The notes under the pieces are model-generated. The model did not search any database and was not told where the DNA came from. It saw only the letters and a list, made by a program, of their open reading frames with translations. From contig CALRGX010000002.1 in assembly GCA_943358385.1 (NCBI GenBank), positions 9,718-73,717 of the forward strand: a DNA stretch of 64,000 bases, read 5' to 3'. Shown piece after piece: positions 9,054 through 62,188 of this stretch; the stretch's first letter is position 1, and every line of letters starts with the position of its first letter. Made by a program: the position numbers and the translations under genes. The DNA is from Parcubacteria group bacterium (GTDB lineage Bacteria > Patescibacteriota > Minisyncoccia > Phycocordibacterales > UBA2100).

Positions 9054-10337
9054 TTACCTACAGTTCGCCCACAAACCGCGCGCCGAAAGGCGCGCGGTTT
9101 CTTCAAGGCTTCTAAACGACGTTTGGAAATTGTATGCACGATTTTTATAGGTGTATTCGCGTGCAGCACCTTCCTTCACCAAAACTTCGTTCACGTGAGT
9201 CTTTCCAATGTACACATACGCCAAGAGCCGCCCGTAGGTATCGCGCGTATCTTGCGTCGGGTCAGTCATGAGCATGAGCGCAGAGCCGTTTGGCAGCACT
9301 GCGCGCAATGCTTCTGTTGCCTCAGGTGCGAAGCATTCTGGTTTTGTATCTTTCCCTGCGTTCGTTTCAGGTGCGTCGATACCAAGAAGTCGCACCTTTT
9401 CCTCGCCTCCATTCTCTAGACGCACGCGTATGGTGTCCCCGTCCGTTACCCCAAGAAGAACCGCCCCAGTGGGGCGGGCGTTTACTTCGTGCACGGGATC
9501 AAGAAGGAATGGCGAGTCGGTAGTTTTGAATGCGGTCCCGGTATCTGGCACTATCTCTGGCGCCGATGCTTCGAAAAAGGTCAGACCAAACATCATCACT
9601 ACGCCAATAATGACCGCAAGGAACTGTATGAGCGAATCCCGCACACGAGCATGCCTGTGCAGCTCGGGCACTAAATCCGCTGCGGCAATGTAAATGAAAG
9701 AACCAGCAGCAAGTGCCGAAAGTGCAGGAATCATTGCCTCGCTGTATGACCCAATAAGGAACACCAGCCCTGCACCCAGAAACGCCGAGAGGGCCGAGGC
9801 GACGTTTGCAATGAGGGCTCGCGTGCGCGAAAACCCTGCGTGCAAGAGCACACCAAAGTCACCTATTTCTTGGGGTAGTTCGTGAAGCGCCACTGCAATC
9901 GTGGTTGCCACACCAGCTTCTGTTGAAACGAGAAATGCTGCCGCGATAATGACGCCATCAACCACATTGTGCAGAATGTCGGCGAATATAATGAGAAAGC
10001 CAAACGGACGCACGTGGTCGTCGCAGTCATCGCAGGCATCTTCGGTCTCTTGGTGTGGCTCGTGGTGATGATGCCAGTGTAGGAACTTTTCCAAAATGAA
10101 GAAGATACCCATACCTAACAGAACCCACAGCGCCGTACTGTCGCCCAAGGTTTCGGATGCTTCCGGAATGAGATGAATGAATGCGTCACCCAACAGTGCT
10201 CCGACCGCAATGCCCACAAACACCAGCATGAGACCGTGCAGATTTTTTGAACGGGCTGGGTAGAACAGGGCGGCGAGCGCTGAAATTGCGCTGATACCGG
10301 CAATGGCCGCTAGAGTGAGTAATACCGGGGAGTCCAC
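9054..10337 (-). CDS. fusion protein: N-terminal ZIP-family (ZupT-like) divalent metal transporter and C-terminal staphylococcal (thermo)nuclease domain
   Basis: ZIP signatures HNVVDGV and HELPQEIGDFGVLL with His-rich loops HWHHHHEPH. C-terminal VTDGDTIRVRL...LLGIDAPET...YGRLLAYVY...VNEVLVKEGAA matches the SNase/TNase fold. Confidence 0.75.
   Translation of the reverse strand: MDSPVLLTLAAIAGISAISALAALFYPARSKNLHGLMLVFVGIAVGALLGDAFIHLIPEASETLGDSTALWVLLGMGIFFILEKFLHWHHHHEPHQETEDACDDCDDHVRPFGFLIIFADILHNVVDGVIIAAAFLVSTEAGVATTIAVALHELPQEIGDFGVLLHAGFSRTRALIANVASALSAFLGAGLVFLIGSYSEAMIPALSALAAGSFIYIAAADLVPELHRHARVRDSLIQFLAVIIGVVMMFGLTFFEASAPEIVPDTGTAFKTTDSPFLLDPVHEVNARPTGAVLLGVTDGDTIRVRLENGGEEKVRLLGIDAPETNAGKDTKPECFAPEATEALRAVLPNGSALMLMTDPTQDTRDTYGRLLAYVYIGKTHVNEVLVKEGAAREYTYKNRAYNFQTSFRSLEETARLSARGLWANCR
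9073..9104 (+). terminator. hairpin terminator for the plus-strand gene. It lies inside the 3' coding end of the convergent ZIP-SNase gene.
   Basis: aaaccgcgcgcc-gaaa-ggcgcgcggttt followed by cttc. Confidence 0.5.
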
Positions 10338-10451: not shown

Positions 10452-11270
10452 ATGGACACGCAAAAACAAGAGATTCACATTGTTCCGCCAACGATTATGG
10501 TAAAAGCAGCAGCAGCGGCACTCGTGGCACTTGCACTCTGGGGCGCGGCGGAGTTCTTAACCACGCTTAAAGAGTTCCGTTTTGTCGGCTCTGGGACTAC
10601 GGCGACCAACACCATCACCGTCTCAGGTGAAGGGGAAGTATTTGCGGTCCCTGACCTCGCCACATTCTCAGTGAGTGTGGAAGAGAAAGCGAAAGAGGTA
10701 AAAGATGCACAAAAAGTTGCCACTGAAAAGTCTAACGCTATCCTTGCTGCACTACGCGCAAAAGGTATTGCCGACAAAGACATCAAGACTACCGCATACA
10801 ATGTCTACCCCAACTACCAGTGGCTCCAAGAACCATGCACCTCGCGTGGCTACTGCCCACCAGGGGAGCAGAAGCTCGACGGCTACACTGTTTCGCAATC
10901 AATCGAGGTAAAGGTGCGTGACACTGACGCAGCAGGAGAAATTCTGGCGAGCGTCGGCTCTTTGGGTGCGAGCAACGTGAGCGGTCTTTCATTCACGATA
11001 GATGATGAAGACAAGCTGCAAGCTGATGCGCGCGCTGAGGCAATTGCTGATGCCGAGACCAAGGCAGAAGAATTGGCCGATCAACTAGGGGTAAAGATTG
11101 TCCGCATCGTTGGTTTCTCTGAAAACGGAGGAGGCTACACGCCGCCAATGTACTTGAAGCGCGAAGCCATGGCCATGGACTCAGCCGCTGCAAATGCTCC
11201 AGCGCCCGAGTTGCCTATGGGGGAAAACAAAATTGCTTCCAGTGTCTCGATTACGTACGAGATTCAGTAG
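10452..11270 (+). CDS. SIMPL/DUF541-family periplasmic protein (26-kDa periplasmic immunogenic protein family)
   Basis: N-terminal TM anchor and overall pattern (GYTVSQSIEVKVRD...ITYEI), recognised from family memory. Confidence 0.6.
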   Translation: MDTQKQEIHIVPPTIMVKAAAAALVALALWGAAEFLTTLKEFRFVGSGTTATNTITVSGEGEVFAVPDLATFSVSVEEKAKEVKDAQKVATEKSNAILAALRAKGIADKDIKTTAYNVYPNYQWLQEPCTSRGYCPPGEQKLDGYTVSQSIEVKVRDTDAAGEILASVGSLGASNVSGLSFTIDDEDKLQADARAEAIADAETKAEELADQLGVKIVRIVGFSENGGGYTPPMYLKREAMAMDSAAANAPAPELPMGENKIASSVSITYEIQ

Positions 11271-23186: not shown

Positions 23187-26100
23187 ATGGAGAATCGTCC
23201 AGGAGATGAAAAAACGGAAACATCGAAGCGCGAAGAGGCGGTGCTTTCGTTTTGGAACGAGCACAAGATTTTCGAGAAGTCAGTCGCTAAGGATGCCCCA
23301 AAGGGCGAGTATGTGTTCTACGACGGACCGCCGTTTGCAACCGGGCTCCCACATTACGGGCACATCGTCGCTTCGGTCATCAAAGACGTGGTACCGCGCT
23401 ATTTCACCATGCAGGGCTACAGCGTGCCGCGCCGTTGGGGGTGGGATTGCCACGGGCTACCGATTGAAAACATCGTAGAAAAAGAATTAGGCACCAAACG
23501 CAAAAAAGACATCGTCGAGCAGGTGGGCATCGCAAAATTCAACGAGCTGTGCCGCTCGAAAGTAATGACGTATGCCGACGACTGGAAGAAAATCATCCCG
23601 CGCATCGGTCGCTGGGCGGATATGGAAAATCCGTACTTCACCATGTCTCCGGAATTCATGGAAAGTGTGTGGTGGGTATTCAAGCAGCTGTATGACAAAA
23701 AGCTGGTGTACGAAGATTACCGCTCGATGCACATCTGCCCTCGCTGCGAGACCACGCTTTCACAAGGTGAAGTAGCCGAAGGGTACAAGATGATTAAAGA
23801 TTTGGCGGTAACAGTTAAATTTCCTTTGGTGGACGAACCTAACACCTTTGTGCTTGCGTGGACGACCACGCCATGGACGCTGCCGGGGAACGTTGCCCTT
23901 GCGGTGCATAAGGAGGTCACGTATGTAAAGGTCCGCGCCCTTCAAGCAGCTACCGTATCGTCGAGTAATGGAGAGTACTCGGTTGCTGAGAACAGTGCCC
24001 TCTACATTGTTTCAAAAGAAGCGCATGAAAGGATGGCGGGGCAGACTCTCGCGATTGTTCCAGAGGGAGAAGTGAAGGGTCATGAACTCATTGGAAAAGA
24101 ATATCTTCCCCCATTCGATTCCTACCAAAACGCCAAAGTAAAAAATATAGAAAACGCGTGGAAGATTTACCATGCAGATTTCATCACGACCGACACGGGT
24201 ACTGGCATCGCACACGAGGCACCCGCGTTTGGTGCAGAAGACATGGTGCTCGCGCAGAAGGAGGGTCTGCCTCTCATTTCACACGTGGCAATGGATGGTA
24301 CTATTGCGCCCGAGGTGAAAGAGCTTGCAGGGCTTTCGGTAAAGCCAATTAATGATCCGCAGGCAACCGATGTGGAGGTGGTGAGATATTTGGCTGGGAA
24401 AGGGCTTCTCTTTGCAAAAGAAAAATACGAGCACAGCTACCCACACTGCTGGCGCTGTGACACTCCGCTCATCAACTACGCCACTTCGTCGTGGTTTGTA
24501 AAAGTAGAAGGCATAAAACCAACACTTCTTGCAACTGCAGAAAATGTAAACTGGTCGCCATCACACGTGAAAGAAGGGCGCTTTGGGAAATGGCTTGAAG
24601 GTGCACGCGACTGGTCAATTTCTCGCCAGCGTTTCTGGGCGAGCGTCATCCCACTGTGGCGTTGCGCGAGCTGTGGCAAGGAAGAGGTATTCGGGTCGGT
24701 GGCTGAGCTTAAAGAAAAGAGTGGGGTAGAGGTGAAAGACCTACACAAACATATCGTCGACGAGGTTACGTACCCATGCACCTGCGGTGGCACCATGAAG
24801 CGTATACCAGACGTACTCGATACATGGTTCGATTCAGGCTCGATGCCGTATGGCGAAAAACACTACCCATTTGAAGACAAGGCACGCTTCGAGAAAACAT
24901 ACCCAGCCCAATTCATTGCAGAAGGGCAGGATCAGACGCGTGCATGGTTCTACTATCTCCACGTGTTGGCCGGCGCCGTGTTTGAAAAGAATGCGTTCCA
25001 GAATGTGATAGTAAACGGCATCGTGCTTGCAGAAGACGGCAAGAAAATGTCGAAGAAATTGCAAAACTATCCCGACCCGATGCTCGTGGTGGAAAAATAC
25101 GGTGCCGATGCATTGCGCCTCTACCTAATGAGCTCGCCGGTGGTGCGTGCAGAAAATCTGAACTTCTCTGAAGAAGGGGTGCATGAAACCGCTCGCAAGG
25201 TGGTGGATAGGCTCGTGAACACACACCAGTTCTATACTCTTTTTAAAGACACTCAGGCACATGTACCTGCGGACACCAGCGAGCATGTGCTCGACCGCTG
25301 GATTCTTGCATTACTGCGCAAGACGCATGCCGAGGTTAGCGAGGCGATGGAACGCTACGAGCTCGATCGTGCATCGCGCCCGCTGATTGATTTCATGGAC
25401 GACCTGTCCACCTGGTACCTGCGTCGCTCTCGCGACCGTTTCAAATCCGACAACGCTGCCGATGTGTCGGCTGCTCTTTCGACACTCTCATTCGTGCTAC
25501 GTGAATACGCAAAAATGAGCGCTCCTTTTACGCCGTTTCTTTCAGAATGGTTGTGGCAAGAAATGAAAATCGATAGTGATGCAGAGAGTGTGCACCTTGC
25601 GCAATGGAGTGTATTTGAACCAATGCGTACGCAAGACGAGCAAGAAACTCTGACCAAACACATGACGCTGACGCGAAGTATTGTTTCTGCTGGTTTGGAA
25701 AAGAGATCGAAGGCTAACATCAAAGTGCGGCAGCCGCTTTCAAAAATTATAATTGGGGTTGATATACCCGCGCTTGCAGAAGAATTTAGCGAACTGATTC
25801 AAGATGAATTGAATGTTAAAGAAGTGGTGTATCTCCACGCACCGGATAAGAATCCGACAGAAGGGAGCCTTTCATACGCAGTGCTGTCTGTTGAGCTCGA
25901 CACTACGCTTACGCCAGAGCTTCTGCGCGAGGGCGTCATCCGCGACCTCTTGCGTGCGGTGCAAGGCTTGCGCAAAGACATGAACCTGACCCCTGGCGAG
26001 AAGGTGACGCTGGTGGTTTCGGCAAGTGAGGCAGGCAAGGAAATAGTTGCCGAGGCACAAAAGGAATTACTCCGCGTGGCGAATGTGCAACAGACGGTGT

Positions 26101-26189
26101 TTGAAGAAGTGGGCGCATTGGAGCACCTGGGGAAACTCGAAGCAGAAGGGGAGACAGTCGCAACCTTCACTCTCCGTACCGAAATATAA
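23187..26189 (+). CDS. ileS: isoleucyl-tRNA synthetase (1000 aa)
   Basis: GLPHYGH HIGH-motif, WTTTPWTLP (IleRS signature), KMSKKLQN KMSKS motif. Confidence 0.95.
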   Translation: MENRPGDEKTETSKREEAVLSFWNEHKIFEKSVAKDAPKGEYVFYDGPPFATGLPHYGHIVASVIKDVVPRYFTMQGYSVPRRWGWDCHGLPIENIVEKELGTKRKKDIVEQVGIAKFNELCRSKVMTYADDWKKIIPRIGRWADMENPYFTMSPEFMESVWWVFKQLYDKKLVYEDYRSMHICPRCETTLSQGEVAEGYKMIKDLAVTVKFPLVDEPNTFVLAWTTTPWTLPGNVALAVHKEVTYVKVRALQAATVSSSNGEYSVAENSALYIVSKEAHERMAGQTLAIVPEGEVKGHELIGKEYLPPFDSYQNAKVKNIENAWKIYHADFITTDTGTGIAHEAPAFGAEDMVLAQKEGLPLISHVAMDGTIAPEVKELAGLSVKPINDPQATDVEVVRYLAGKGLLFAKEKYEHSYPHCWRCDTPLINYATSSWFVKVEGIKPTLLATAENVNWSPSHVKEGRFGKWLEGARDWSISRQRFWASVIPLWRCASCGKEEVFGSVAELKEKSGVEVKDLHKHIVDEVTYPCTCGGTMKRIPDVLDTWFDSGSMPYGEKHYPFEDKARFEKTYPAQFIAEGQDQTRAWFYYLHVLAGAVFEKNAFQNVIVNGIVLAEDGKKMSKKLQNYPDPMLVVEKYGADALRLYLMSSPVVRAENLNFSEEGVHETARKVVDRLVNTHQFYTLFKDTQAHVPADTSEHVLDRWILALLRKTHAEVSEAMERYELDRASRPLIDFMDDLSTWYLRRSRDRFKSDNAADVSAALSTLSFVLREYAKMSAPFTPFLSEWLWQEMKIDSDAESVHLAQWSVFEPMRTQDEQETLTKHMTLTRSIVSAGLEKRSKANIKVRQPLSKIIIGVDIPALAEEFSELIQDELNVKEVVYLHAPDKNPTEGSLSYAVLSVELDTTLTPELLREGVIRDLLRAVQGLRKDMNLTPGEKVTLVVSASEAGKEIVAEAQKELLRVANVQQTVFEEVGALEHLGKLEAEGETVATFTLRTEI

Positions 26190-26225
26190 AGGTCGGTCCT
26201 TTATATAAAGGACCGACCTTTATAT
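26184..26225. repeat. REP-like palindromic element, double head-to-head copy (tataaaggtcggtcctttata / tataaaggaccgacctttata) overlapping the ileS stop
   Basis: Exact copies of the 21-bp palindrome also found at 46471, 46584, 47848, 48325 and 62148. Confidence 0.75.
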
Positions 26226-28899: not shown

Positions 28900-29048
28900 G
28901 CAGGGACAAGATACTAGGTATAAGGTATTAGGGGGTAGGTTTTAGTAATACAAAAACCGAGTAATCTTTAGATTGCCTTTTCCTAGCACCTAAAACCTAT
29001 AACCTCGTCCCTACCTCTTTTCCTGGTTTCTTGTATAGTTAGGAATCT

Positions 29049-42209: not shown

Positions 42210-42814
42210 TGCGCGGGGTTTATCTACATGAAGATATTGGACGCAGGGTCATCTGGCCCAGGTACAAAACCTTCGTATGGACACCCTTGGTTATCCACAT
42301 TTGCACAGGTCGGCTCGTGAGCTGCACTGGGCGGGGCGGACTATACTATTGAGGTGCGCGATGCGGTCCACCGCGTCGTGTACTGCGCTATCGTGGTTCT
42401 GATTGTGTCTTCGCCTCGCGCGAGGGCGCAGAAGAGTCAAGAGAGCATTGATCTTTGACACGACATATAAGGGAAAACAAACGGTGTGCTTTTCGCACAC
42501 AGGTGATCTCCGCACGATATGCGCGATGCTTCATATGAAGCACGGGGCATATCTTTCACGCACTGATACTGAAACGGCTGCAATGTCCTGTCACGGAAGA
42601 ACGACTGCACGACCCCTACATTCGCTGCTAACCCTTAGCGCTTCATAGTCGAAATAAACGAGGCGTTAGGGATAGCAATAACATTGTTTATCAGTGTTGT
42701 GTCGCAAGACACTCAAAATCGTATCGATGCCTTGGTCGAACAAGCGTCGGTACGTACTTTCCGTACACAGTTAATTGTGTGCGGACAGTTACAAGGTCAA
42801 AAAACAAAATAACT

Positions 42815-45800
42815 ATGAGTAATGCATTAGCAACACCAAAAGTTGCAGCAGTGCTCGCCGGACTCGCTATGGTAGTTGGATTCGCGTTCGCTTTTGCCAC
42901 ACCGGCAAAGGCAGACGTTGTCTCTGATCTCCAGGCTCAGATCCAGGCGCTGCTTGCACAAATCGCAACTATCTCTAGTGGTACAACCACTGGCGGTAGC
43001 TGTACTCCAGGCCAAACGCTCACTCGCAATCATAAAGCAGGTGAGACTGGTGGGGAGATTATGTGGATTCAACAGTTCTTGAACGCTAACGGTTTCACCG
43101 TTTCAGCATCGGGAGCAGGTTCTAAAGGAAACGAGACTTCATACTTCGGTCCAGCGACCAAGGCTGCAGTCATCAAGTTCCAGAACGCTCACGCAGCTGA
43201 TGTTCTCACTCCAGTAGGTCTTACCTCAGGTACAGGCTTCTGGGGCGCATCATCTCGCGCAAAGGCGAACATGATGGGTTCTAGCTGTACTCCAGGCACT
43301 GGCACTGGTACCGGCACAGGCACAACCCCAACGGGAACTGGCCTTACGGTTTCAGCATCAGCTCAGCCTGCGAACTCGCTCGCACCACAAGGCGTATCAC
43401 GCGTTCCATTCACTACATTCACTCTCACCAACAACTCTGGTGTAGCAGTAACAGTGAACGGCATCGTGGTTGAGCGCACTGGACTTGCACAGGACTCGGT
43501 CTTCTCAGGCCTCGTTCTTGTAGACAACGGTACGAACACTCAGATCGGTACATCGAAGACTCTTAACTCAAACCACCAGGCAGTAGTAGGTGACGCGTTC
43601 ACTATGAACCCAGGTGAGTCAAAGAGCTTGACGGTTGCTGGTAACATGGCTGCAAGTCTCGCTATCTACGCAGGTCAGGTAGTTGCAGTATCAGTAGTAG
43701 GTGTGAACACAACTGCAACAGTTGCCGGCTCACTTCCAATCACTGGTGCTCAGCACACCATCAACGCAACGCTCTCAGTTGGCTCAGTGTCAACTTCGAC
43801 GTCTTCGTTTGATCCAGGTGCAAACACAAACAAGAACATTGGAGACACGGCTGTACGCTTCTCAGGACTTCGCTTCACAGCTGGTTCTGCTGAAGATCTC
43901 CGCTTCTACTCGATTCGTTGGCGCCAGGTTGGTACTGCAAGCGCAGTCGACCTTTCGAACATCGTGACAGTAGTAGACGGCGTTCAGTACCCAGTCACTG
44001 TTGATTCTTCTGGTAAGTACTACACCACTTCGTTCCCTGGCGGTCTTTTGATCCAGAAGGGTAACTCGATTGATGCGTACGTACAGGGTGATCTTACGGG
44101 TTCAAACTCGGCAAGCCGCACTGTTCGCTTCGATCTCGATCGCGTAACGGATGTGTACTTCATCGGCCAGACTTACGGCTACGGCGTCGCTCCTAGCGGC
44201 ACTTCACAGCCTTGGTTCACCGGTTACACCGCAACAATCAACCCAGGTACCGTAACAACGATTGGTAAGGCAAACTCGGTTGCTGCACAAAACATTGCAG
44301 TAAACGTGCAAAACCAACCTCTCGGTGGTTTCGAGACCAACTTCGCAGGTGAGGCTGTATCCGTACAGGGTATGACCTTCACTGTGTCGACATCTTCTGC
44401 TTCAATCGGCGGCCTTCTCACGAACGTCTCTATTGTTGATCAGAACGGTGTAGTTGTTGCTGGTCCAGTAGACGCTACAGGTGCTGGTTCAACCCAGACC
44501 CTCACGTTCACTGACACCGTCACCTTCCCAGTTGGCAAGATGGTATACACCCTCAAGGGTCGTGTATCTTCAAGCGCAACTTCAGGTGCAGTGCTGACTG
44601 TTGCTACGACTCCTTCTGGTTGGACAAACCCAACTGGTCAGACCTCGGGTAACACGATCACTATCGGTACTTCAGCATTCTCTATGAACGCAATGACTGT
44701 TAAGGGCGTAACCCTCGCGGTTTCTGCTTCGACACAGCCTTCTTCACAGAGCATTGTTGCAGGTGTACAGGGTTTCACCTTTGCAAACATCCAGTTGGAT
44801 GCTTCGCAGTCAGGTGAGGATGTACGTATCTCTTCAGTTCCTGTGTACTACGCAGACGTGTCTGGCACACCAGCTAGCTCGTTCTCAGGTTGTCAGCTTT
44901 GGGACGGTGTAACACCTCTCAACACTGGTGGCCGCGTAATCAACAGCGTCACAACTGGTACGAACTCTACACACACACTCGACAACTCTCTCACCATTCC
45001 TAAGGGAACAGTGAAGACACTCGCCGTGAAGTGTAACCTCGGCACAGGTGCTTCAGGTGCAGCTAAGTTCGGTGTAAACGGCGGTACGTACTCGGCAACG
45101 GGTGCAACCTCAGGCAACTCTGTCTCAGGAACTGCTAACACCAGCTACAGCGGTACTATGACCATCGGTACTGGTTCTTACGCAGTATCGGTTGACTCTT
45201 CTTCTCCATCATTCATGGTGGTAGCAGCAGGTTCAACAGGTGTTAACGCTGGCGTAGTGAAGTTCCGCGCTTCTAACGAAGACGTATCTCTCACTAAGCT
45301 CGGTCTCATCCTTACATCAGGATCAAATAGCGACGTTCTCTCAGTTGATATCTACGACGGTGCAACGAAAGTTGGTACTGCGTACTTCACCTCGGGTTCA
45401 GTTGCTACATCAACTCTGACGACTTCAGTTACGCTTCCTAAGGACACTGACAAGACTCTTACCCTCAAGGCAAACCTTGCTGGTATCGGTTCTTCGGAGT
45501 CAGGTACCCCAGGTGTAACTGTTAAGGTTGACCCTAGCTACGCAGAAGGATCTGGTCTTGCATCAGGTTCAACTGTGTACGACATTGCTGTCATTGGTGT
45601 TGCTGGCTTCGGTATGTACAAGTCGTTCCCAACACTTGCTCTTGAGTCAGGCTCACAAGTTCTTGGTACGACAGGTATTGCTGACGGTCGCCTCATCCGC
45701 TTCAAGGTCACTGCTGACGCAAAAGGTCCAGTAGGAATCGCAGGCCTCGGCTTCTCGATCTCTACAACCTCAGTCAGCGTGTCTAACGTGCAGCTCTTCG

Positions 45801-46192
45801 GGTATACCAACGCTACCTACTCTTCTGCGATCTCAGGTCAAGGAACGAGTGGTCAGATTGGTACCACGATTGCAACCTGGACATACGGCGCAGAGAACAA
45901 GATTGTTCCTACGACGAATGCAGTACAGGTTCCAGCAGGACAGACCTACTACTTCGAGCTCCGTGGCTCAGTATCAGGTGCAACTACTGGCTCATCTGTA
46001 GTGACGACTCTGAACGGCGATTCAGTTGCTCAGGCAATCACACAGGCAGTCAGTGCTACGACTACACACAGCTTTGCATGGTCGGGTAACTCGACGACAA
46101 CGTCGAACCTCACTGGCGACGCTGACTGGACAAACGGTTACAGCATCGAAGGCTTGCCTTCATCTGGCCTCATCCAGACTCGTTCTAACTAA
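42815..46192 (+). CDS. giant secreted S-layer-like / cell-surface protein with an N-terminal peptidoglycan-binding (PGB1-like) domain and multiple Thr/Ser/Gly/Val-rich beta-repeat domains
   Basis: Signal peptide MSNALATPKVAAVLAGLAMVVGFAFAFATPAKA. Two copies of a SCTPG motif bracket a PGB1-like segment (IMWIQQFLNANGF...YFGPATKAAVIKFQNAHAADVLTPVGLTSG). A (TG)n linker. Strong preference for T/A-ending codons, unlike neighbouring genes. Confidence 0.7.
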   Translation: MSNALATPKVAAVLAGLAMVVGFAFAFATPAKADVVSDLQAQIQALLAQIATISSGTTTGGSCTPGQTLTRNHKAGETGGEIMWIQQFLNANGFTVSASGAGSKGNETSYFGPATKAAVIKFQNAHAADVLTPVGLTSGTGFWGASSRAKANMMGSSCTPGTGTGTGTGTTPTGTGLTVSASAQPANSLAPQGVSRVPFTTFTLTNNSGVAVTVNGIVVERTGLAQDSVFSGLVLVDNGTNTQIGTSKTLNSNHQAVVGDAFTMNPGESKSLTVAGNMAASLAIYAGQVVAVSVVGVNTTATVAGSLPITGAQHTINATLSVGSVSTSTSSFDPGANTNKNIGDTAVRFSGLRFTAGSAEDLRFYSIRWRQVGTASAVDLSNIVTVVDGVQYPVTVDSSGKYYTTSFPGGLLIQKGNSIDAYVQGDLTGSNSASRTVRFDLDRVTDVYFIGQTYGYGVAPSGTSQPWFTGYTATINPGTVTTIGKANSVAAQNIAVNVQNQPLGGFETNFAGEAVSVQGMTFTVSTSSASIGGLLTNVSIVDQNGVVVAGPVDATGAGSTQTLTFTDTVTFPVGKMVYTLKGRVSSSATSGAVLTVATTPSGWTNPTGQTSGNTITIGTSAFSMNAMTVKGVTLAVSASTQPSSQSIVAGVQGFTFANIQLDASQSGEDVRISSVPVYYADVSGTPASSFSGCQLWDGVTPLNTGGRVINSVTTGTNSTHTLDNSLTIPKGTVKTLAVKCNLGTGASGAAKFGVNGGTYSATGATSGNSVSGTANTSYSGTMTIGTGSYAVSVDSSSPSFMVVAAGSTGVNAGVVKFRASNEDVSLTKLGLILTSGSNSDVLSVDIYDGATKVGTAYFTSGSVATSTLTTSVTLPKDTDKTLTLKANLAGIGSSESGTPGVTVKVDPSYAEGSGLASGSTVYDIAVIGVAGFGMYKSFPTLALESGSQVLGTTGIADGRLIRFKVTADAKGPVGIAGLGFSISTTSVSVSNVQLFGYTNATYSSAISGQGTSGQIGTTIATWTYGAENKIVPTTNAVQVPAGQTYYFELRGSVSGATTGSSVVTTLNGDSVAQAITQAVSATTTHSFAWSGNSTTTSNLTGDADWTNGYSIEGLPSSGLIQTRSN

Positions 46193-46228
46193 CGTTAGTA
46201 CGAGTGTGCTATCCAGCAATGGATAAAC

Positions 46229-46262
46229 AAAAAGCTCCCCGAAAGGGGAGCTTTTTGTTTTG
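46229..46262 (+). terminator. rho-independent terminator after the S-layer-like gene
   Basis: aaaaagctcccc-gaaa-ggggagcttttt followed by gtttt. Confidence 0.75.
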
Positions 46263-46470
46263 GTCATCTTGCCCGCATGTTTGTAAGACAACCCACACAG
46301 ATGGCTGTAAGGTATCTGTGTGGGCACTCATGCACACATACAGGTGAGTTTATGTTTTTTTGCCGAGGAATCTCCTCGTCGCCTTGATCTGTTTTAGGAG
46401 TCTGCCCTTCACGCTGTACTGGTGCAGTGTTTTCCTAGCACCTGTTACCTAACACCTCGCACCTACCTCC

Positions 46471-46493
46471 CTACCTTCAAAATATAAAGGTCG
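46471..46493. repeat. REP-like palindrome copy, ggtcggtcc orientation
   Basis: atataaaggtcggtcctttatat. Confidence 0.75.
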
Positions 46494-46583
46494 GTCCTTT
46501 ATATTTCTCCGACAGGTTAAGGTGCTCTCGCATTTCTCATGCGACTTCTTACCCGGTGCTGGCACCCTTGTGGCGTTCGCAGA

Positions 46584-46606
46584 ATATAAAGGTCGGTCCT
46601 TTATAT
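46584..46606. repeat. REP-like palindrome copy, ggtcggtcc orientation
   Basis: atataaaggtcggtcctttatat. Confidence 0.75.
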
Positions 46607-46652
46607 TTAGGTCGCTCTTGTAACGGTACTCGGCCTCGCGTACAATGTCGCC

Positions 46653-47408
46653 ATGTCATCAAACACGCTGCAGGCAATTATCGGCACGGCTATCATATTG
46701 GCTCTTTTGGGTATTGGTGGCTGGTACTATTTCCAGCCAAAAGCTCAAAAAGTGCAGATCGGCGGCGTAACCGTTGATATGCCAAAAGGCGCCACCATCG
46801 AATTACTGGAAGATGAATTGCCACCGCTCGATCATGCAGTGGAATTTGAAACAGGGGTGCCACTTGATACTCGTGAGGCGTTGACCGACAACATTGAAAA
46901 GCTCACTGCAATCCTCGAAGGCGATCCAACACATTTCAACGCATGGCTTGATCTTGCGCTCCAGTACAAGGTAGCGGGGGATTATCGTGCCGCAGAACGC
47001 GTGTGGTCGTATCTTGTTGATGCGGCGCCTCAGTCAGGCTTGAGTGCTCACAACCTGGGCACCTTAAACCACCTCACTTTTAAGGAGTTTGAAAAAGCGG
47101 AACAGAATTTCAAATTGGCAATTGAGCGGGAGCCTCTCCAAGGTGCGTACTACCTCTCGTTCCACGAGCTATACCGGTATTCGTACAAAACCGACACGAC
47201 GCTGGCGGCAGACATCTTGAAGGAAGGACTCAAGCTCACCCCTGAAAATACTGATCTATTGCTTGCGCTCGCGGTGTACTATCGCGATGACAAAAAAGAC
47301 AAAAAAATGGCACGTGAGTACTACACACAGGCGCGCGATGCGGTACAGAAAACAGGAAACATGGATTTGGTGCGTGCCATCGAAACTGATATTCTGAAGT
47401 TGAAGTAG
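46653..47408 (+). CDS. membrane-anchored TPR-repeat protein
   Basis: N-terminal TM IIGTAIILALLGIGGWYYF; TPR-like helices (WLDLALQYKVAGDYRAAERVW..., AYYLSFHELYRYS..., ALAVYYRDDKKDKKMAREYYTQAR). Confidence 0.6.
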   Translation: MSSNTLQAIIGTAIILALLGIGGWYYFQPKAQKVQIGGVTVDMPKGATIELLEDELPPLDHAVEFETGVPLDTREALTDNIEKLTAILEGDPTHFNAWLDLALQYKVAGDYRAAERVWSYLVDAAPQSGLSAHNLGTLNHLTFKEFEKAEQNFKLAIEREPLQGAYYLSFHELYRYSYKTDTTLAADILKEGLKLTPENTDLLLALAVYYRDDKKDKKMAREYYTQARDAVQKTGNMDLVRAIETDILKLK

Positions 47409-47457
47409 CTGATGTGCCTCGGCATGGAAGCGTGGCTTCGTAGTACAATGAGGGCAT

Positions 47458-47631
47458 ATGCGCGGCGCCTTTAATGAGAGTTTTTTAAAATTCTCCATTG
47501 GCTTCCTCTGTATCATTCTGGGGAGTTTTGGATTTACGATTGCCTTGGACTACTATGACGAAAACTATGGCGACACGAAGCAAACAGCCTCGGTTTTTGA
47601 AAGTGCTGCAGCGCAGTTTTTCTCACAGTAA
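47458..47631 (+). CDS. possible small membrane protein (57 aa), not in the supplied track
   Basis: ORF MRGAFNESFLKFSIGFLCIILGSFGFTIALDYY...; weak RBS. Confidence 0.2.
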   Translation: MRGAFNESFLKFSIGFLCIILGSFGFTIALDYYDENYGDTKQTASVFESAAAQFFSQ

Positions 47632-47680
47632 CGTGGTCTTGTTTGGGTGTTCGCGTGCTGTGTGATGGTATTCTTTCGCT

Positions 47681-48346
47681 ATGAACCGCGAGGTGCCGTT
47701 GAGTACCGGAGAGGTGTACCACGTATACAACCGTGGCGCACATAAACAAAAGGTCTTCACCAGTCCCATAGACTATGCTCGCTTTCAGCTGCTGCTCTAT
47801 TTAGGTAACGCAAAAGACCCGGTGCACATGGGGAACCTCCTCTCAAAATATAAAGGACCGACCTTTATAAAAATCTACCAAGAGCACGACATATCAAAGG
47901 AAGAAAAATTGGTCGACATCCTCGCATACTCGCTACTACCAAACCATTTTCACCTCGTCCTGAAGCAAAAGGTGAATGGCGGTATCTCACTGTTTCTAAA
48001 AAAAGTGGCCACAGCATATTCCATGTACTTTAATGGCAAGTACGACCACAGTGGCACCTTGTTCCAAGGGCGCTTTAAAAGTAGTCATGTAGACACGCCG
48101 GAATATTTGCGATGGCTTTTTGCGTATGTGTATCTTAACGCTGCCGATTTGTGCAAAGAAAATGCACTCGCAAAGAAAACCACATTCCTGCGCCAGTATA
48201 GATACAGCAGCCTTCCGGATGCACTCGATGAGGGGAGGCCCGAGCGTTCGATAGTAGCTATCGAAACCCTACTAACCGATTTCAAAGAAGATCACACTGC
48301 CGACATTATCGAGCTCACCAGAATTATAAAGGACCGACCTTTATAA
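47681..48346 (+). CDS. REP-associated tyrosine transposase (RAYT / TnpA_REP, IS200-like HuH Y1 transposase)
   Basis: Motifs YHVYNRG, HuH NHFHLVL, and LFQGRFKS...YVYLNAADL (compare the RAYT consensus YHV..RG, HxHLL, LFQGRYK, YVHLNPVRA). Flanked by REP copies in opposite orientations. One REP copy lies inside the CDS and one overlaps its stop. Confidence 0.75.
   Translation: MNREVPLSTGEVYHVYNRGAHKQKVFTSPIDYARFQLLLYLGNAKDPVHMGNLLSKYKGPTFIKIYQEHDISKEEKLVDILAYSLLPNHFHLVLKQKVNGGISLFLKKVATAYSMYFNGKYDHSGTLFQGRFKSSHVDTPEYLRWLFAYVYLNAADLCKENALAKKTTFLRQYRYSSLPDALDEGRPERSIVAIETLLTDFKEDHTADIIELTRIIKDRPL
47848..47870. repeat. REP-like palindrome copy in ggaccgacc orientation, embedded in-frame in the RAYT CDS
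   Basis: aatataaaggaccgacctttata encodes KYKGPTFI. Confidence 0.75.
48325..48346. repeat. REP-like palindrome copy in ggaccgacc orientation, overlapping the RAYT stop codon
   Basis: ttataaaggaccgacctttataa encodes IKDRPL*. Confidence 0.75.
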
Positions 48347-48369
48347 TGCGGTTTGACCAAGGGTGGCGG

Positions 48370-48526
48370 CTGGGGTACGATGCGCCCACTGGACCGGAGA
48401 CAGTAGGTGGAGCCTCTAAACAGGCACCGTAACGCGAAAGCGCCTACCGAGGTTTGCCCGCCTTTGGCGGGGAACACTCCTTTCAGTTGGTCGATTAGTT
48501 TCTTACGAAACGAAAAACAAACACGT
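48370..48526 (+). promoter_or_regulatory. candidate L10 (rplJ) leader: a structured 5' UTR typical of the rplJL autoregulatory region
   Basis: About 160-nt GC-rich untranslated region with paired segments (gggtggcggctgggg... / ...gcccgcctttggcgggg) immediately upstream of rplJ. Confidence 0.35.
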
Positions 48527-49018
48527 ATGGCAAAAACAAAAGCACAGAAACAAGAAATGCTTACTCGCCTTACCGAAGCACTGAAGAAGACCGGGTCATC
48601 AGCACTCGTGCATTTCAAAGGTGTTTCAGTGGCAGAAGAGTCAGCAATGCGCCGTTCCTTGCGGGAACAGGGACTCGCGTACTTTGTTTCCAAGAAGACG
48701 CTCATTAAGAAAGTGCTCACGGACAACGGGTTCGCGCTTCCAGAGCTTGGTGGTGAGGTGGCAGTGATTTACAACACTACGTCTACCGATACGACCGCTC
48801 CAGCGCGCCTCGCGCACGAGTTTAGCAAAAATCTCGGCGGCGAACGCTTCGCACTCTTGGCAGGTATCTTTGAAGAAAAGATTCAGGACAAGAAAGGTAT
48901 TACCGAGATTGCAACGATTCCATCAATGGATATCTTGCGCGGTATGTTTGCGAACGTGCTCAACTCACCGATGCAACGATTCGCTATTGCACTTTCTGAA
49001 GTGGCAAAGACTAAATAA
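48527..49018 (+). CDS. rplJ: 50S ribosomal protein L10
   Basis: MAKTKAQKQEMLTRLTEALKKTGSSALVHFKGVSVAEESAMRRSLRE... matches L10. Followed by rplL. Confidence 0.9.
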   Translation: MAKTKAQKQEMLTRLTEALKKTGSSALVHFKGVSVAEESAMRRSLREQGLAYFVSKKTLIKKVLTDNGFALPELGGEVAVIYNTTSTDTTAPARLAHEFSKNLGGERFALLAGIFEEKIQDKKGITEIATIPSMDILRGMFANVLNSPMQRFAIALSEVAKTK

Positions 49019-51582: not shown

Positions 51583-52455
51583 CGCCACACCTTATGAGTA
51601 CTAACAAAAGCCCGAAGTAGAGCGGTTGGACCGGTCGAAAGGCCTTTCCAGAAGCCGCGTTGAAGCGGCCTTTTTAGTGCAAGGAGTAAGGGAGAACGTT
51701 GACACACAAGGATTCATTTATTGGAGATGAATTCTTTCATATACGAAATTAAAACAACATGCAGAAATGCGTGTTGATGAATCAATCAATTGCAGGCTTC
51801 ATACCGCTACGGTGGTATGAATAAAAAATGTATGACGAACATACTGAACATATGTTCGTTCGAGATCTGTACCAACGCGAAGGCGGAGGTATAGAAATCA
51901 ATCACAATGCGGTTCTTAGAATTTCTAACAGGAGATTCTAATAAGGGCGTATGGTGGATGCCTTGACTGAAGAGAGCGATGAAGGACGTGGTCTGGCTGC
52001 GAAATGCATCGGGGAGCTGCCAAACAAGCTTCGATCCGGTGATGTCCGAATGGGGAAACCCTATTGAGTAACCCTCAATAACTTTGCACTAGCAAAGAGC
52101 ATACCTCGGGAAGTGAAACATCTCAGTACCGAGAGGAAAAGAAAACAATTGTTATTCCCTTAGTAGCGGCGAGCGAAACGGGAGGAGCCCAAACTTAATT
52201 GAGATCAAGGGGAGCATTTCCATGTTCCTCCTGATCTCGGTTAGGGGTTGTAAGGCGTTAGCGCTGTGTTTACACAGGAAGAGTTACAAAGTTTTTGGTT
52301 AGCAGAATCATCTGGAAAGATGAGCCCCAGCGGGTAATAGCCCCGTATGCGAAAATCAAAAGCCTCTTTGGCTAATGTCCTTGAGTAACTCAAGACACGA
52401 ATAGCTTGAGTGAATCTACCGGAACTAACCGGTAAGGCTACATATCTCTTCAGAT

Positions 52456-52498
<43 letters not shown>

Positions 52499-53928
52499 GG
52501 TGAGGGGAGTGAAATAGACCTGAAACCATATGTCTACAAGGAGTCGAAGAGGGCGTAAGTCCTCGACGGCGTGCCTATTGAAGAATGAGCCAACGAGTTG
52601 ATGCATTCGGCTTGCCTAAGAGGTGAACCCTCGGAGGCGTAGTGAAAGCGAGCGTGAATAGCGCGTTTGTCGTTTGTATCAGACCCGAAGCCAGGTGAGC
52701 TACCCATGAGCAGGCTGAACGCTATCGAAAGATAGCGGGAGGGCCGAACCGGTGAGTAATGCAACGCTCTCGGATGACTTGTGGGTTGGAGTGAAAAGCT
52801 TATCGAACTTGGTAATAGCTGGTTCTCTCCGAAACAGCTTTTGGGTTGGCGTCGCGTGTTCCTTGTGGGGGTAGAGCACTGGAAGGATTAAACAGGGCTT
52901 CGGCTCATTAATCCTATCAAACTCCGAATACCACAAATTAATAGCGCGGCAGTTAGTCCGTGGGGGCTAAGCTCCACAGGACAAAAGGGAAACAGCCCTA
53001 GATCGCCAGTTAAGGTCCCTAAATTAACGCTCAGTGTAAGCAAGGAGGTGAAGTTTCTTTGACAGTGAGGATGTTGGCTTAGAAGCAGCCACCATTTAAA
53101 GAAAGCGTAACAGCTCACTCACTCAGAGACTTTGCGCCGAAGATGATCGGGACTCAAGCGTTATACCGAAACTGCGGGTTCGCATATTTTTAATATGTGA
53201 GCGGTAGGAGAGCGTTCCATTCCGCGATGAAGGCAAAGGGGTGACCCATGCTGGAGCGTGTGGAAGTGAAAATGTTGGCACGAGTAACCGCAATGCGGGT
53301 GAGATTCCCGCACGCCGAAAGACCAAGGTTTCCTTCGCAATGGAGATCAGCGAAGGGTTAGCCGGGCCTAAGCCGATGGCGAAAGCCGAAGGTGATGGAC
53401 ACAGGGTTAATATTCCCTGGCTCGGACGTGGTGCGATGAGATGACGGAGGGTAGTAGTGTGCGCCCCTTATTGGTTTGGGGTCATTGCTCTGAGGGTGCT
53501 GGCGAGGTAAATCCCGTCCGCATAGCCCAAGGAGAGATGAGAACTGTGCTTCGGCACAGGAATGCACATGAGCACGCTTTCAAGAAAAGTCTCTAAGCAT
53601 AACCACGTACGATCCGTACCAGAAACCGACACAGGTGGTCAGGTCGAGTAGACCAAGGCGAACAAGTGAGTGCTCCTTAAGGAACTCGGCAAAAAAGCGG
53701 CCGTAACTTCGGGATATGGCCTGCCCCTCGCAAGAGGGGCCGCAGCGAAAGATTCCCTGACAACTGTTTACCAAAAACACAGCTCCCTGCGAACTCGTAA
53801 GAGGATGTATAGGGGGTGACACCTGACCAATGCCGGAAGGTCAAGTATGGGGGGTGCATGGATTTATCCATGTGCTGGACTATATAAGCCCCGGTCAATG
53901 TCGGCGATAACTATAATCGTCCTAAGGT

Positions 53929-54195
53929 TCCGCATTTCTCGCAAGAGGAATGCGGAAGGACTGGGACGATTATGGAGAAAAGGGTAAACAGAAATATCTA
54001 CACTAAAAAAGCTACCTTGTGCCCGCGCAGCAATGCGTCACGCACTTGTCCAAAACATGACTATATGATGATGGGTCCGAAACCGATCATCAGGCAATCC
54101 TCAGCGCAAGCGAATGGAGGCCATAGAGACTATACGCCATGTACCTTTTGCGAAAGCAGAAGGTAAAGAAATAGTCCAACGTAAAGGAATAGTTG
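53929..54195 (+). mobile_element. ORF-less group I intron in the 23S rRNA (helix 69-71 region, near E. coli position 1931)
   Basis: The 23S exon sequence cctaaggT / AGCGtAATTCCTTGTCGGG is interrupted by about 267 nt. The insert has GACTA...TAGTC P7-like pairing (agagactatacg ... aatagtcc) and ends in G. The upstream exon ends in U. Confidence 0.55.
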
Positions 54196-54858
54196 AGCGT
54201 AATTCCTTGTCGGGTAAATTCCGACGTGCACGAATGGTGTAATGATTGGGGAACTGTCTCAAGGAGCAGCTTGGTGAAAATACAGTACCGGTGAAGATGC
54301 CGGTTACCTGCAGCTAGACGAAAAGACCCCAGAAGCTTTACTGCAGCTTCATATTGGGGATACGAAAATACTGCGTAGCATAGGTGGGAGAGGTTGAAGT
54401 GATCCTTTAGGGGGTCATGGACTCGTCAGTGAAATACCACTCTTTATTTTTGTATCTTCTAACCTGGGTAGCAAAAATGCACAGGAACAGTATGTGGCAG
54501 GTAGTTTAAGTGGGGCGCTTTCCTCCTAAAAAGTAACGGAGGAGCTTATTAAGGTCACCTAGGCGCGGATGGAAACCGTGCCGATAGTGTAATGGCAAAA
54601 GGTGGCTTGACTGCGAGACGTAGGTGTCAAGCAGGTGCGAAAGCAGAACATAGTGAACCGACCTTCCGCGTTAGATGCGGGGGGAGATTAACCGATAAAA
54701 GTTACTCTGGGGATAACAGGCTAGTTCCGCCTAAGAGTCCAAATCGACGGCGGAGTTCGGCACCTCGATGTCGGCTCACCTTATCCCGGGGCTGGAGAAG
54801 GTCCCAAGGGTTTGGCTGTTCGCCAATTAAAAAGGTACGCGAGCTGGGTTCAGACCGT

Positions 54859-55164
54859 TCAGGATGCGAGAGCTAAGGCACGCAAGTGCACGCTCACATT
54901 CGTGTCCTGAACACGTCTGAACTCCGAGGAATACTTAGTTAGACAATTCACGGCGGCTCTCTATAGAAATACAGAGATGCATGTCTGACATATTTCGGTA
55001 GACGCAACCACGACCTAACCTGGCGTGGGTAAAGCAATACCGAGGGAATCTTGAGCGAAAGCGATAGAGCCCGTAGAGACTACACGTCAGATACCTGAAT
55101 CCTGAGCGTAAGCGAAGGAAAGGTAAAGATATAGTCCAGTACATAACACAATCAGTATGTATAG
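54859..55164 (+). mobile_element. ORF-less group I intron in the 23S rRNA (GGGUUUAGAACGU / CGUGAGACAG region, the I-CreI-site neighbourhood)
   Basis: The exon gggttcagaccgT / CGTGAGACAGGTTGGTC is interrupted by about 306 nt containing gtagagactacacg ... atatagtcc (P7-like). It ends in G. The upstream exon ends in U. Confidence 0.55.
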
Positions 55165-55567
55165 CGTGAGACAGGTTGGTCTTAATCTGCTGCAGGCGTT
55201 GATTTTTGAAGAGTTTCGTCCCTAGTACGAGAGGACCGGGATGAACTGACCTCTGGTCTGTGAGCTGTCGCTACCCGCGGCATTGCTCAGTAGCTATGTC
55301 GGGAACGGATAAACGCTGAAAGCATATAAGCGTGAAACCGCCTCTAAGATAAGAAATCATTTGAGACCCGTGAGAGATGATCACGTTGATAGGCACTAGG
55401 TGGAAGTGCAGTAATGCATTGAGCCGAGGTGTACTAATTCGTCGAAGAAACTCCTGTTAGAACTTCTGAGAACCAATCCGACACATACTATGTGTATAGG
55501 ATAGTCATTGTGAAATACAACTTGTAATTGATTGATAAAAGATTCGTGAACTGTAGTGAGTGCTTAC

Positions 55568-61229: not shown

Positions 61230-62138
61230 ATGGCAAAAATGATCGTGACGGGAGGTGGGGGATTTATTGGCTCGCACCTAGTGCGCGCGCTGCTTGAGAA
61301 GGGAGACGAAGTGCACGTCGTTGATACTTTTGTTGCTGGGAAGTTACCCGAGCGATTGGATGCGCGCGCCCAGTATTACGAAATCGACATTACCAACACG
61401 GATGCGCTCAGTGCTCTCATGGAGGGTGCTGACACCGTGTTCCATCTTGCCGCCATTCCACGTGTCCCATACTCAGTGGCACATCCTGTGGAGAGTACAC
61501 ACGCAAATATCACTGGCACGGTGTCTGTGCTCACCGCTGCTTCGCGCGCAAAAGTGAGGCGGGTAGTCTCATCAAGTTCAGGATCCGTGTACGGCGATTA
61601 GGTCACCTTACCACTCACGGAATCGATGGTCCCCAACCCTGTGAATCCATACGCGTTGCAAAAATATGCGGGGGAGCGCTTCGCTGCGTTATGGGCCAGT
61701 AGTTTCAATATCGAAACCGTGTCGTTGCGTTACTTTAATGTGTATGGCCCAGGGCTCGATCCTCATGGACCGTATGCGCTGGCGGTTGGGGCATTTATCT
61801 TGGCCCGAAAAGAAGGGCGGCCACTTACCATTTTTGGCGATGGTACCATCACGCGCGATTACACTCATGTGTCTGATGTGGTGCAAGCAAATCTTCTTGC
61901 GGCGACTTCTCACCGGGTAGGGAAGGGCGAGGTCATAAACATTGGAACGGGAAGCAACAACACCATCAAGGCACTAGCCGAGATGGTGGGTGGAGAAATT
62001 GTGTACGCCGCGCCTCGAATCGAGGCACATGATTCTCGTGCGGACAATCTGCGTGCAAAAGAATTGCTTGGTTGGGAGCCGACCGTCTCACTTGCTGTGG
62101 GAATTGCGGCACTCAAGAAAGAGTGGGGTATTGCGTAG
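61230..62138 (+). pseudogene. NAD-dependent epimerase/dehydratase (GalE-like) interrupted by a single in-frame TAG at 61599-61601
   Basis: The two track ORFs, 61230..61601 and 61626..62138, are in the same frame. Read-through gives ...SSSGSVYGD*VTLPLTESMVPNPVNPYALQKYAGE..., a contiguous epimerase with VTGGGGFIGSHL and the YxxxK-region NPYALQK. Confidence 0.65.
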
Positions 62139-62147
62139 AGCATGAAA

Positions 62148-62188
62148 ATATAAAGGACCGACCTTTATATAAAGGTCGGTCCTTTATA
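62148..62188. repeat. REP-like palindrome, double head-to-head copy
   Basis: atataaaggaccgacctttatataaaggtcggtcctttata. Confidence 0.75.

Follow-up and report, generated by a model that had tools for sequence, protein, structure and literature searches.

The Y1 gene and the palindrome copies of the window

We analyzed a 64-kb stretch of DNA (64,000 nt; hereafter, the window) from a Parcubacteria group bacterium, covering positions 9,718 to 73,717 of contig CALRGX010000002.1. The window carries one gene for a Y1-type HUH (histidine-hydrophobic-histidine) protein, similar to the REP-associated tyrosine transposases (RAYTs; REP, repetitive extragenic palindrome), together with a short palindrome that recurs inside this gene, at its stop codon and at other sites. 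An original prediction, made from the letters of the sequence, had described the locus as a RAYT gene flanked and invaded by its own REP. The features considered below are as follows (the doublets have no assigned strand).

47681..48346, + strand: Y1 HUH (RAYT/TIRYT-like) gene, 221 aa, sole copy in the window
47849..47869, + strand: intragenic palindrome, loop ACCGA, in frame with the Y1 gene, encodes Y57-K-G-P-T-F-I63
48325..48345, + strand: 3' palindrome, loop ACCGA, codons I-K-D-R-P-L plus the TAA stop of the Y1 gene
46483..46503, + strand: upstream palindrome, loop TCGGT, 1.2 kb 5' of the Y1 gene, 11-bp stem, -8 kcal/mol as single-stranded DNA (ssDNA)
46585..46605, + strand: second upstream palindrome, loop TCGGT, same orientation as the copy at 46483 and 102 nt downstream of it
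26185..26224: inverted doublet, TCGGT then ACCGA, single 21-bp hairpin, -21.6 kcal/mol
62149..62188: inverted doublet, ACCGA then TCGGT, single 18-bp hairpin, -19 kcal/mol

The palindrome, TATAAAGG-N5-CCTTTATA, is 21 nt long and occurs in eight copies at six loci (starts at 26185, 26204, 46483, 46585, 47849, 48325, 62149 and 62168). Each copy is a perfect 21/21 match, and dinucleotide-preserving shuffles gave a chance expectation of 0 copies. A search tolerating up to 3 mismatches revealed no degenerate copies in the window. The orientation of a copy is set by its central five bases, TCGGT or the complement ACCGA. The number of copies and loci had been predicted correctly, as had the loop orientations (TCGGT at 46483 and 46585, ACCGA at 47849 and 48325), the in-frame position of the internal copy between motif I and the HUH motif, where its 21 nt encode YKGPTFI, and the contribution of the 3' copy to the last six codons and the stop (IKDRPL, then TAA). 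The predicted coordinates required small adjustments: the first upstream copy starts at 46483 instead of 46471, and 26184 and 62148 were off by one. The 3' copy is translated in a different reading frame from the internal copy.

Single copies, folded as ssDNA, form stems of 8-11 bp (-5.4 to -8 kcal/mol). In both doublets two inverted copies overlap by 2 nt, giving a 40-nt perfect palindrome that folds into one hairpin of 18-21 bp (-19 to -21.6 kcal/mol; z-scores near -10). Two inverted REPs joined in one long hairpin constitute a REPIN (REP doublet forming hairpin), a concept said to come from Bertels and Rainey; such doublets, for which the original prediction had suggested a check, are present at 26185-26224 and 62149-62188, 21 kb upstream and 14 kb downstream of the Y1 gene. 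The first palindrome of the former encloses the TAA stop (26187-26189) of the isoleucyl-tRNA synthetase open reading frame (ORF; 23187-26189), and the latter is placed between convergent genes, 10 nt past the stop codon of an epimerase-like ORF. Resembling doublets were also found in six related loci (L007, L011, L066, L073, L085 and L093).

No Rfam family was matched at the palindromes. At gathering thresholds the whole window yielded rRNA and tRNA only, and a permissive scan of 45900-48700 gave sub-threshold matches on a terminator hairpin only. The guide tetranucleotide GT[AG]G (GTAG or GTGG) was not found at any palindrome of the window; all stems are perfect, and the bases adjoining them merely extend the palindrome with A/T.

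The Y1 protein

The ORF at 47681-48346 encodes the motifs YHVYNRG, NHFHLV, LFQGRFK and YVYLN, which had been recognized as RAYT hallmarks, and the protein scores above the threshold of Pfam PF01797 (Y1_Tnp; 27.1 bits, cutoff 23), with only residues 73-150 aligned. The HUH motif is H89-F-H91 (nt 47945-47953), and N88-H89-F90-H91 is invariant in 25 sequences. The presumed catalytic Tyr149 (48125-48127) is part of the motif Y149-V-Y-L-N153-A. Y149 and N153 are invariant, while position 154 is proline in at least 90% of homologues and alanine in the window protein. There is no TnpB-like partner next to the gene, and no further Y1 copy in the 64-kb window.

A structural model was built with AlphaFold2 from the 25 sequences (mean predicted local distance difference test, pLDDT, 90; pTM 0.89). 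It places the HUH motif on strand E89-96 and Tyr149 on the helix 140-157. The best Foldseek match in the PDB was 4ER8, the Escherichia coli TnpA_REP protein with its REP hairpin (E 3.4e-5), followed by the TnpA proteins of IS608, ISDra2 and IS200; 4ER8, 2A6M and 2XM3 each reached a probability of 1.00. By sequence, PDB searches remained at noise level for the single protein, and the profile gave E values of ~0.2-0.3 for 2XM3 and 4ER8. An affinity to TnpA_REP was seen in the fold, with 4ER8 as best match; the best NCBIfam match, NF047646 (REP_Tyr_transpos), scored 24.6 bits against a cutoff of 80. A better fit to an IS200 TnpA accompanied by TnpB, which would have spoken against the original prediction, was not obtained, as 4ER8 ranked ahead of IS200, IS608 and ISDra2. 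The Y---N(P) and FQ motifs, the missing TnpB, the single copy and the structural match to 4ER8 support the identification of the gene as that of a RAYT-like Y1 HUH protein and not of a classical IS200 TnpA.

In the model, the octapeptide encoded by the internal palindrome forms the loop that connects the short helices H50-57 and H63-68, where confidence is lowest (pLDDT 74). The segment between alphaA and beta2 that holds the octapeptide is family-wide and lacking in the Pfam core: the whole family is ~25 residues longer there than the Pfam/4ER8 core, whether or not a palindrome is present. The Pfam and NCBIfam alignments begin only after the internal-palindrome region.

Layout of the hairpins in related loci

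Database searches yielded 369 homologues of the Y1 protein, and those with a named host belong to Patescibacteria, Paceibacteria or Kaiserbacteria. Species-representative genomes gave at least 536 matches, nearly all in metagenome-assembled genomes of Patescibacteria; the best match was 59% identical. The proteins of the family are 215-255 aa long, with the consensus motifs PNHFHLV, LFQGRFKS, AYVHLNP and YSS (Y173 and S177 invariant).

Hairpins were scored in 72 related loci and the window (73 loci). A locus-specific perfect hairpin was present 20-50 nt before the start codon in 60/73, centered ~35 nt before it. A cognate hairpin was found at the stop codon in 64/73, from ~80 nt before to 120 nt after it and mostly within ~55 nt, and an internal hairpin at gene nt ~160-225 in 20/73. 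The apex AGG-N5-CCT is common to all of them, whereas the lower stem and the loop vary by locus.

The window has the 3' and internal copies of this layout only, and the 49 nt directly 5' of the Y1 start contain no palindrome. The predicted flanking of the gene by oppositely oriented REPs is not supported in the window, where the usual proximal 5' copy is missing. The two copies said to precede the gene are indeed both upstream, but 1.1-1.2 kb away, with a tetratricopeptide repeat (TPR) gene (46653-47408) and a small ORF (47458-47631; 57 aa, one predicted hydrophobic helix) in between. The copy at 46585-46605 is located just 5' of the promoter region of the TPR gene.

These two upstream palindromes belong to a ~370-nt intergenic segment (46270-46640) that also contains a long hairpin and a pyrimidine-rich repeat, and that is missing from the orthologous contigs L081 and L085. 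The pyrimidine-rich repeat is 47 nt long (TTTTCCTAGCACCT..ACCTA..CCTACCTC), and its two copies (46430-46476 and 28978-29024) are 79% identical, one immediately 5' of the palindrome at 46483 and the other upstream of the start of a glyS-like gene. A kinship of the 46483 flank with residues 52-63 of the protein was considered and dropped, the tblastn match being weak and insignificant (E 0.17).

The internal site is bimodal. In ~20-25 of ~78 related loci it matches the flanking hairpin of the same locus at 18-21 of 21 positions, and the remaining loci have no hairpin there. Set against the flanking hairpin of its own locus, the internal site of a carrier shows 0-3 differences in 21 nt; set against the hairpins of other loci, it shows ~9. 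Carriers are scattered over the neighbor-joining tree. In all carriers (20/20) the hairpin is centered at codon position 2, reading ..AA GGN NNN NCC TTN, and is translated as (K/Q/E)-G-x-(S/T/P/A)-(F/L). Non-carriers have an unconserved loop of variable length at this site. The distance from motif I to the HUH motif is 65-80 aa in carriers (mean 70) and 61-78 aa in non-carriers (mean 68). A copy at the 3' end of the gene has the same orientation as the internal one in 16 of 19 carriers.

Co-variation of the copies and constraint at the DNA level

The palindromes and the peptides encoded by them were compared in the closest clade. In the list, the internal peptide precedes the C-terminal one.

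Window gene and L081: TATAAAGG-ACCGA-CCTTTATA; KYKGPTFI and IIKDRPL-stop
L085: TATCAAGG-ACCGA-CCTTGATA in 4/4 copies, a compensated stem change; KYQGPTLI
L091: window-type stem, loop CAAGA in 3/3 copies; HYKGKTFI and IIKARPL-stop
L092: GACAAAGG-TCGGA; YDKGRTFV and LTKVGPLSD-stop
L094: TATGGAGG-TTCAA; KYGGSTSI and KYGG-stop
L093: TATCAAGG-ACGGT-CCTTTATA, with one uncompensated C.T mismatch common to the internal (10165-10190) and 3' (10660-10685) copies

Within a locus, a change in one copy is shared by all the others and is reflected in the encoded peptides. Since copies and peptides co-vary in this manner across the closest clade, it is the DNA palindrome that dictates the peptide, not the reverse. 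The stem of L093 looks like an intermediate between the window type and the L085 type, and its copies stay alike even with imperfect pairing.

Constraint is also visible at synonymous positions. In codons for identical amino acids, the third positions of the window gene and L081 agree in 16 of 16 cases within the palindromes, compared with 52% overall. The intragenic palindrome is 100% identical in DNA between the two genes, whose products are 62% identical, and the two palindromes are the only 21-nt windows of the gene that are fully conserved between them.

Gene neighborhood and inheritance

The window and the closest contigs share the gene order (recA-ftsK-)surface protein-TPR-small ORF-Y1-rplJ-rplL. 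This synteny extends over Y1 proteins that are 62% (L081, local alignment), 59% (L085), 55% (L094) and 51% (L093) identical to that of the window; in L094, several extra genes separate Y1 from rplJ. A surface-protein gene is present upstream of Y1 in 15 related loci, directly adjacent to it in L005 and L032. The Y1 gene thereby lies between the surface protein gene and rplJL, both of which are probably highly expressed. Y1 paralogues of the same genome are only 50-59% identical to each other, and two loci contain a second, divergent Y1 homologue. The single copy, the synteny maintained down to 51% identity and the divergence of same-genome paralogues fit a domesticated, vertically inherited gene and not a moving insertion sequence (IS).

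The small ORF between the TPR and Y1 genes is kept in L081, L085/L086 and probably L093; in L081 nothing separates its stop codon from the upstream palindrome. The surface protein gene of the window (42779-46192) encodes a Thr/Ser/Gly-rich product of ~1130 aa; its counterpart in L081 has a weak PG_binding_1 match.

Dispersal of the palindrome

Within the window, two of the six palindrome loci are located more than 14 kb from the Y1 gene. A scan of metagenomes with the exact 21-mer identified it in three contigs; in contigs without a Y1 gene it lies just after the stop codons of dnaE and of a gene of the major facilitator superfamily (MFS) type. Dispersal appears modest and lineage-specific.

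A side observation concerns the left edge of dispersed palindromes in L088 (~1595-1640) and L090 (~765-805), where an 11-nt direct duplication (TCAATATAAAG|TCAATATAAAGG) was noticed. It may be a footprint of how palindrome copies are laid down.

A probable REPtron/TIRtron-like system

Taken together, the locus is probably part of a REPtron/TIRtron-like system of Patescibacteria (class Paceibacteria), in which a domesticated Y1 HUH gene, present once and inherited vertically, is paired with its cognate palindrome. In this protein family the palindrome occupies up to three fixed sites of the gene, namely ~35 nt before the start codon, inside the ORF, and over or next to the stop codon. The internal site corresponds to codons of a variable surface loop, and the encoded octapeptide would be tolerated by the protein because this loop is non-conserved. 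In the window the proximal 5' copy has been lost, and in this lineage further copies of the palindrome have reached a small number of remote intergenic sites, either alone or as REPIN-like inverted doublets.

By analogy with TnpA_REP/RAYT proteins and with IS200/IS605 and IS608 transposases, the protein may recognize the palindrome as an ssDNA hairpin and nick and rejoin DNA beside it. Such an activity would explain why copies exist at unrelated loci and as inverted doublets, and why every retained copy has to track the specificity of the enzyme. Most likely, the copies inside the gene and at its stop codon are cis sites kept from an ancestral element, serving for autoregulation or as home copies. 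The gene might keep its own copies for autoregulation, with the upstream copy ~35 nt before the start where a promoter is expected, as relics of IS ends, or as a protected master copy.

The internal copy is an inherited, co-evolving site and not a recent insertion, given the same codon position and phase in 20 scattered carriers and equal spacing with and without the palindrome. In the simplest scenario, the ancestor already had an intragenic copy, which evolved in concert with those on the flanks and disappeared on many occasions. A function of the internal copy is putative. That the palindrome inside the gene works as a cis element instead of riding along as a tolerated passenger, and is kept in step by selection or by enzyme-mediated conversion, is a tentative proposal that we regard as possible and, on balance, rather doubtful. 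The internal copy could be a protected master copy anchoring the co-evolution of REP and enzyme. More speculatively, it might act as a self-limiting switch, because in most carriers it is paired with a 3' partner of the same orientation, and if the stretch separating them were removed by Y1-type excision, the HUH-Tyr catalytic core would go with it.

Several points weigh against the REPtron/TIRtron-like reading as a whole. The copy number was counted in 64 kb of the source genome, and the 21-mer was otherwise found in the three metagenome contigs only. Distal copies in relatives amounted to 12 sites in ~800 kb of flanking sequence, all within 3 kb of the gene, so that most members of the family look like a gene with private hairpins and not like a proliferating REP population. 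The proximal 5' copy, missing in the window, is present in orthologues. Binding and cleavage are proposed from homology to 4ER8, with which the protein shares 13% sequence identity. The palindromes have almost perfect symmetry and no 5' GT[AG]G guide of the kind seen in canonical REPs, and the logic of recognition and cleavage may differ accordingly from theirs. Finally, repeated conversion at one site would give the same pattern as ancestral retention of the internal copy.

Alternative explanations

On the model of the original prediction, a mobile REP would be a recent in-frame arrival in its own RAYT gene and would have lengthened the stretch from motif I to the HUH motif by ~8-15 residues. 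The 21/21 identity of the internal copy with intergenic copies, the in-frame REPs documented in tnpA_REP genes (PMC6006769) and in other genes (PMC3733652), and the start of the Pfam and NCBIfam alignments beyond this region all favor such an event. Yet the spacer, said to be lengthened by about 15 residues, has nearly the same mean in carriers and non-carriers, the latter having a variable loop at this place. A REP colonizing its own transposase is also difficult to reconcile with the 20 carriers across the tree, which share one position and codon phase and have each a different palindrome, or with syntenic orthologues that already have the internal copy at 51-62% identity. A recent insertion is therefore very improbable. 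Nor is a REP inside its own RAYT gene as unusual as had been supposed, since subclass 2.4 provides an earlier published case of in-frame REPs in tnpA_REP genes (PMC6006769). Another way to explain the internal copy away is to read it as a conserved protein motif, KYxGxxF, that is palindromic by happenstance. Y57 and G59 are indeed invariant or nearly so among the 24 closest homologues, but the complete agreement at synonymous positions, the shift of the peptide in step with the flanking palindromes of each locus, the unconserved loop of non-carriers and the low model confidence at this place make this scarcely conceivable.

The arrangement hairpin-gene-hairpin might instead represent an active IS200-like IS, bounded on the left and on the right by the palindromes as its subterminal ends, the internal copy being incidental. 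Its geometry is fixed (a hairpin 20-50 nt before the start and one at the stop, in an IS200-like unit of ~750 bp), the protein has a Y1 fold, L091 is situated in a different neighborhood (ruvA / rpsT), and a second, divergent homologue is present in two loci. Nevertheless, an active IS has only a slim chance of being correct: there is one copy in 64 kb, without a hairpin at its 5' end, synteny is kept among orthologues down to 51% identity, same-genome paralogues are far from near-identical, and the motifs are Y---NP and FQ rather than the Y---Q of IS200, with no TnpB. Somewhat different is the possibility that nothing is mobilized at all and that the palindromes are operators in double-stranded DNA and/or RNA terminators or stabilizers, bound by a Y1 autoregulator or another dimeric factor, with the dispersed copies as regulatory sites. 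Near-perfect symmetry is typical of operators bound by dimers, the upstream copy is centered in promoter territory, and few distal copies exist in relatives. Copies lie ~0-20 nt from the stop codons of ileS, the epimerase ORF, the Y1 gene and, on other contigs, dnaE and the MFS gene. A promoter scan also placed a -10-like TATATT over a REP at 46476-46505, an overlap within chance expectation. On the other hand, none of the palindromes was called by a terminator scan, as they have no T-run and no G+C-rich stem; the inverted doublets fold as 18-21-bp hairpins typical of REPINs; the presence of the identical 21-mer at loci without relation to each other, and in other genomes too, implies that it was copied; and the HUH/Tyr catalytic center is conserved family-wide. 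We consider a purely regulatory role unlikely.

Comparison with known systems

A REPtron/TIRtron-like system, our preferred reading, combines properties of several known ones. The characteristics of class 2 TnpA_REP/RAYT proteins, i.e., the Y---NP signature, low copy number, divergent paralogues and vertical inheritance, were all found here. The E. coli-type REPtron (TnpA_REP/RAYT with REP-BIME, bacterial interspersed mosaic elements), reportedly described by Nunvar in 2010 and by Ton-Hoang and Messing in 2012, is similar in that a domesticated Y1 HUH gene, present once, is associated with a palindrome family of its own, whose copies occur near stop codons and as inverted pairs, and its protein (4ER8) is the best structural match. 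It differs in that the palindromes described here have perfect instead of bulged stems, no 5' GT[AG]G guide and a low copy number, and the protein has the extra ~25-aa segment and a C-terminal domain. As for the flanking of a REPtron gene by cognate palindromes, hairpins occur upstream in 60/73 and at the stop codon in 64/73 loci of the family; the window has the 3' and internal copies, and its nearest 5' copies are 1.1-1.2 kb away, beyond two other genes.

Among the TnpA_Y1 proteins, subclass 2.1 corresponds to the Group 1 RAYTs of Bertels et al. 2017 and to most TIRYTs (TIRtrons) of Di Nocera et al. 2013, and no REP-like sequences have been reported for it (Quentin et al. 2018, PMC6006769). 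Its members have NH[YF]H, FQ and Y[IV]HLNP motifs, an SS tail and a median length of 238 aa (PMC6006769, Table 1). TIRYT genes have flanking terminal inverted repeats (TIRs), which are sometimes self-complementary, sometimes overlap the ORF ends and often contain GGGGWSAS (PMC3733652). The present family resembles subclass 2.1 in NHFH, FQ, YVHLNP, an SS-type tail and a length of ~220-240 aa, a match by motifs only. Further likenesses to subclass 2.1 and the TIRYTs are the C-terminal helical extension, the low copy number and the gene-flanking repeats that can overlap ORF ends. The differences are a short self-complementary hairpin on each flank, the third copy inside the ORF, and the hosts, which are Patescibacteria and not covered by those surveys. 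No GGGGWSAS motif flanks the Y1 gene of the window.

In subclass 2.4, cognate REPs of variable length are inserted in frame in tnpA_REP genes, between the HUH motif and the catalytic tyrosine, and the motifs are WQ and YIxNNP (PMC6006769). The common points are a cognate REP inside the RAYT frame, which stays intact, in a peripheral region of the fold. In contrast, the copies described here have a fixed site before the HUH motif, add no length, keep one codon phase and co-vary with the flanks, in proteins with FQ and YVHLNP motifs. Rickettsia palindromic elements and other intragenic REPs are likewise translated in frame in tolerant loops (PMC3733652); however, they add residues to unrelated genes, whereas here the gene presumably encodes the cognate enzyme and the site is conserved in the family. 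IS200/IS605 elements share the Y1 fold and hairpins at fixed distances before and after the transposase gene, and are distinguished from the present genes by being multicopy and by the Y---Q motif and TnpB; the deep synteny and the same palindrome at both ends are features of the genes described here.

In the literature library accessible to our search, nothing relevant on REP/RAYT systems in Patescibacteria or the candidate phyla radiation (CPR) was found. The host phylum, the REP-like hairpins associated with a subclass-2.1-like protein, and an intragenic copy that is fixed, phase-conserved, co-varying and synonymously constrained appear to be new. REP/RAYT-type systems would thereby be extended to Patescibacteria (CPR) and to a Y1 subclass described as being without REPs. 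Patescibacteria have genomes of ~1 Mb with little repetitive or mobile DNA. The several hundred orthologous loci (at least 536 matches) offer a comparative set in which about a quarter of the loci examined have the target inside the coding sequence. The co-evolution of RAYT specificity and REP sequence, an open issue in the REPIN/RAYT field, can be read directly from these sequences. The shaping of the loop and the C-terminal tails by constraint on DNA matters for annotation and for dN/dS analyses.

Other features of the window

Three further observations concern other parts of the window. Just upstream of the doublet at 62149, an NAD-dependent epimerase-like gene is represented by two adjacent ORFs (61230-61601 and 61626-62138), which could reflect a frameshift, a pseudogene or an assembly error. 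The 23S rRNA match at 51929-55458 is 3530 nt long for a model of 2925 nt, which suggests one or more intervening sequences, and is followed by a tRNA and then 5S rRNA. Finally, the region 2748-3294 contains a tRNA (2748-2831) and then a tandem array of about three 177-180-nt units, in each of which the terminator-like hairpin AAACAAACCCGAAAGGGTTTGTTT is present.

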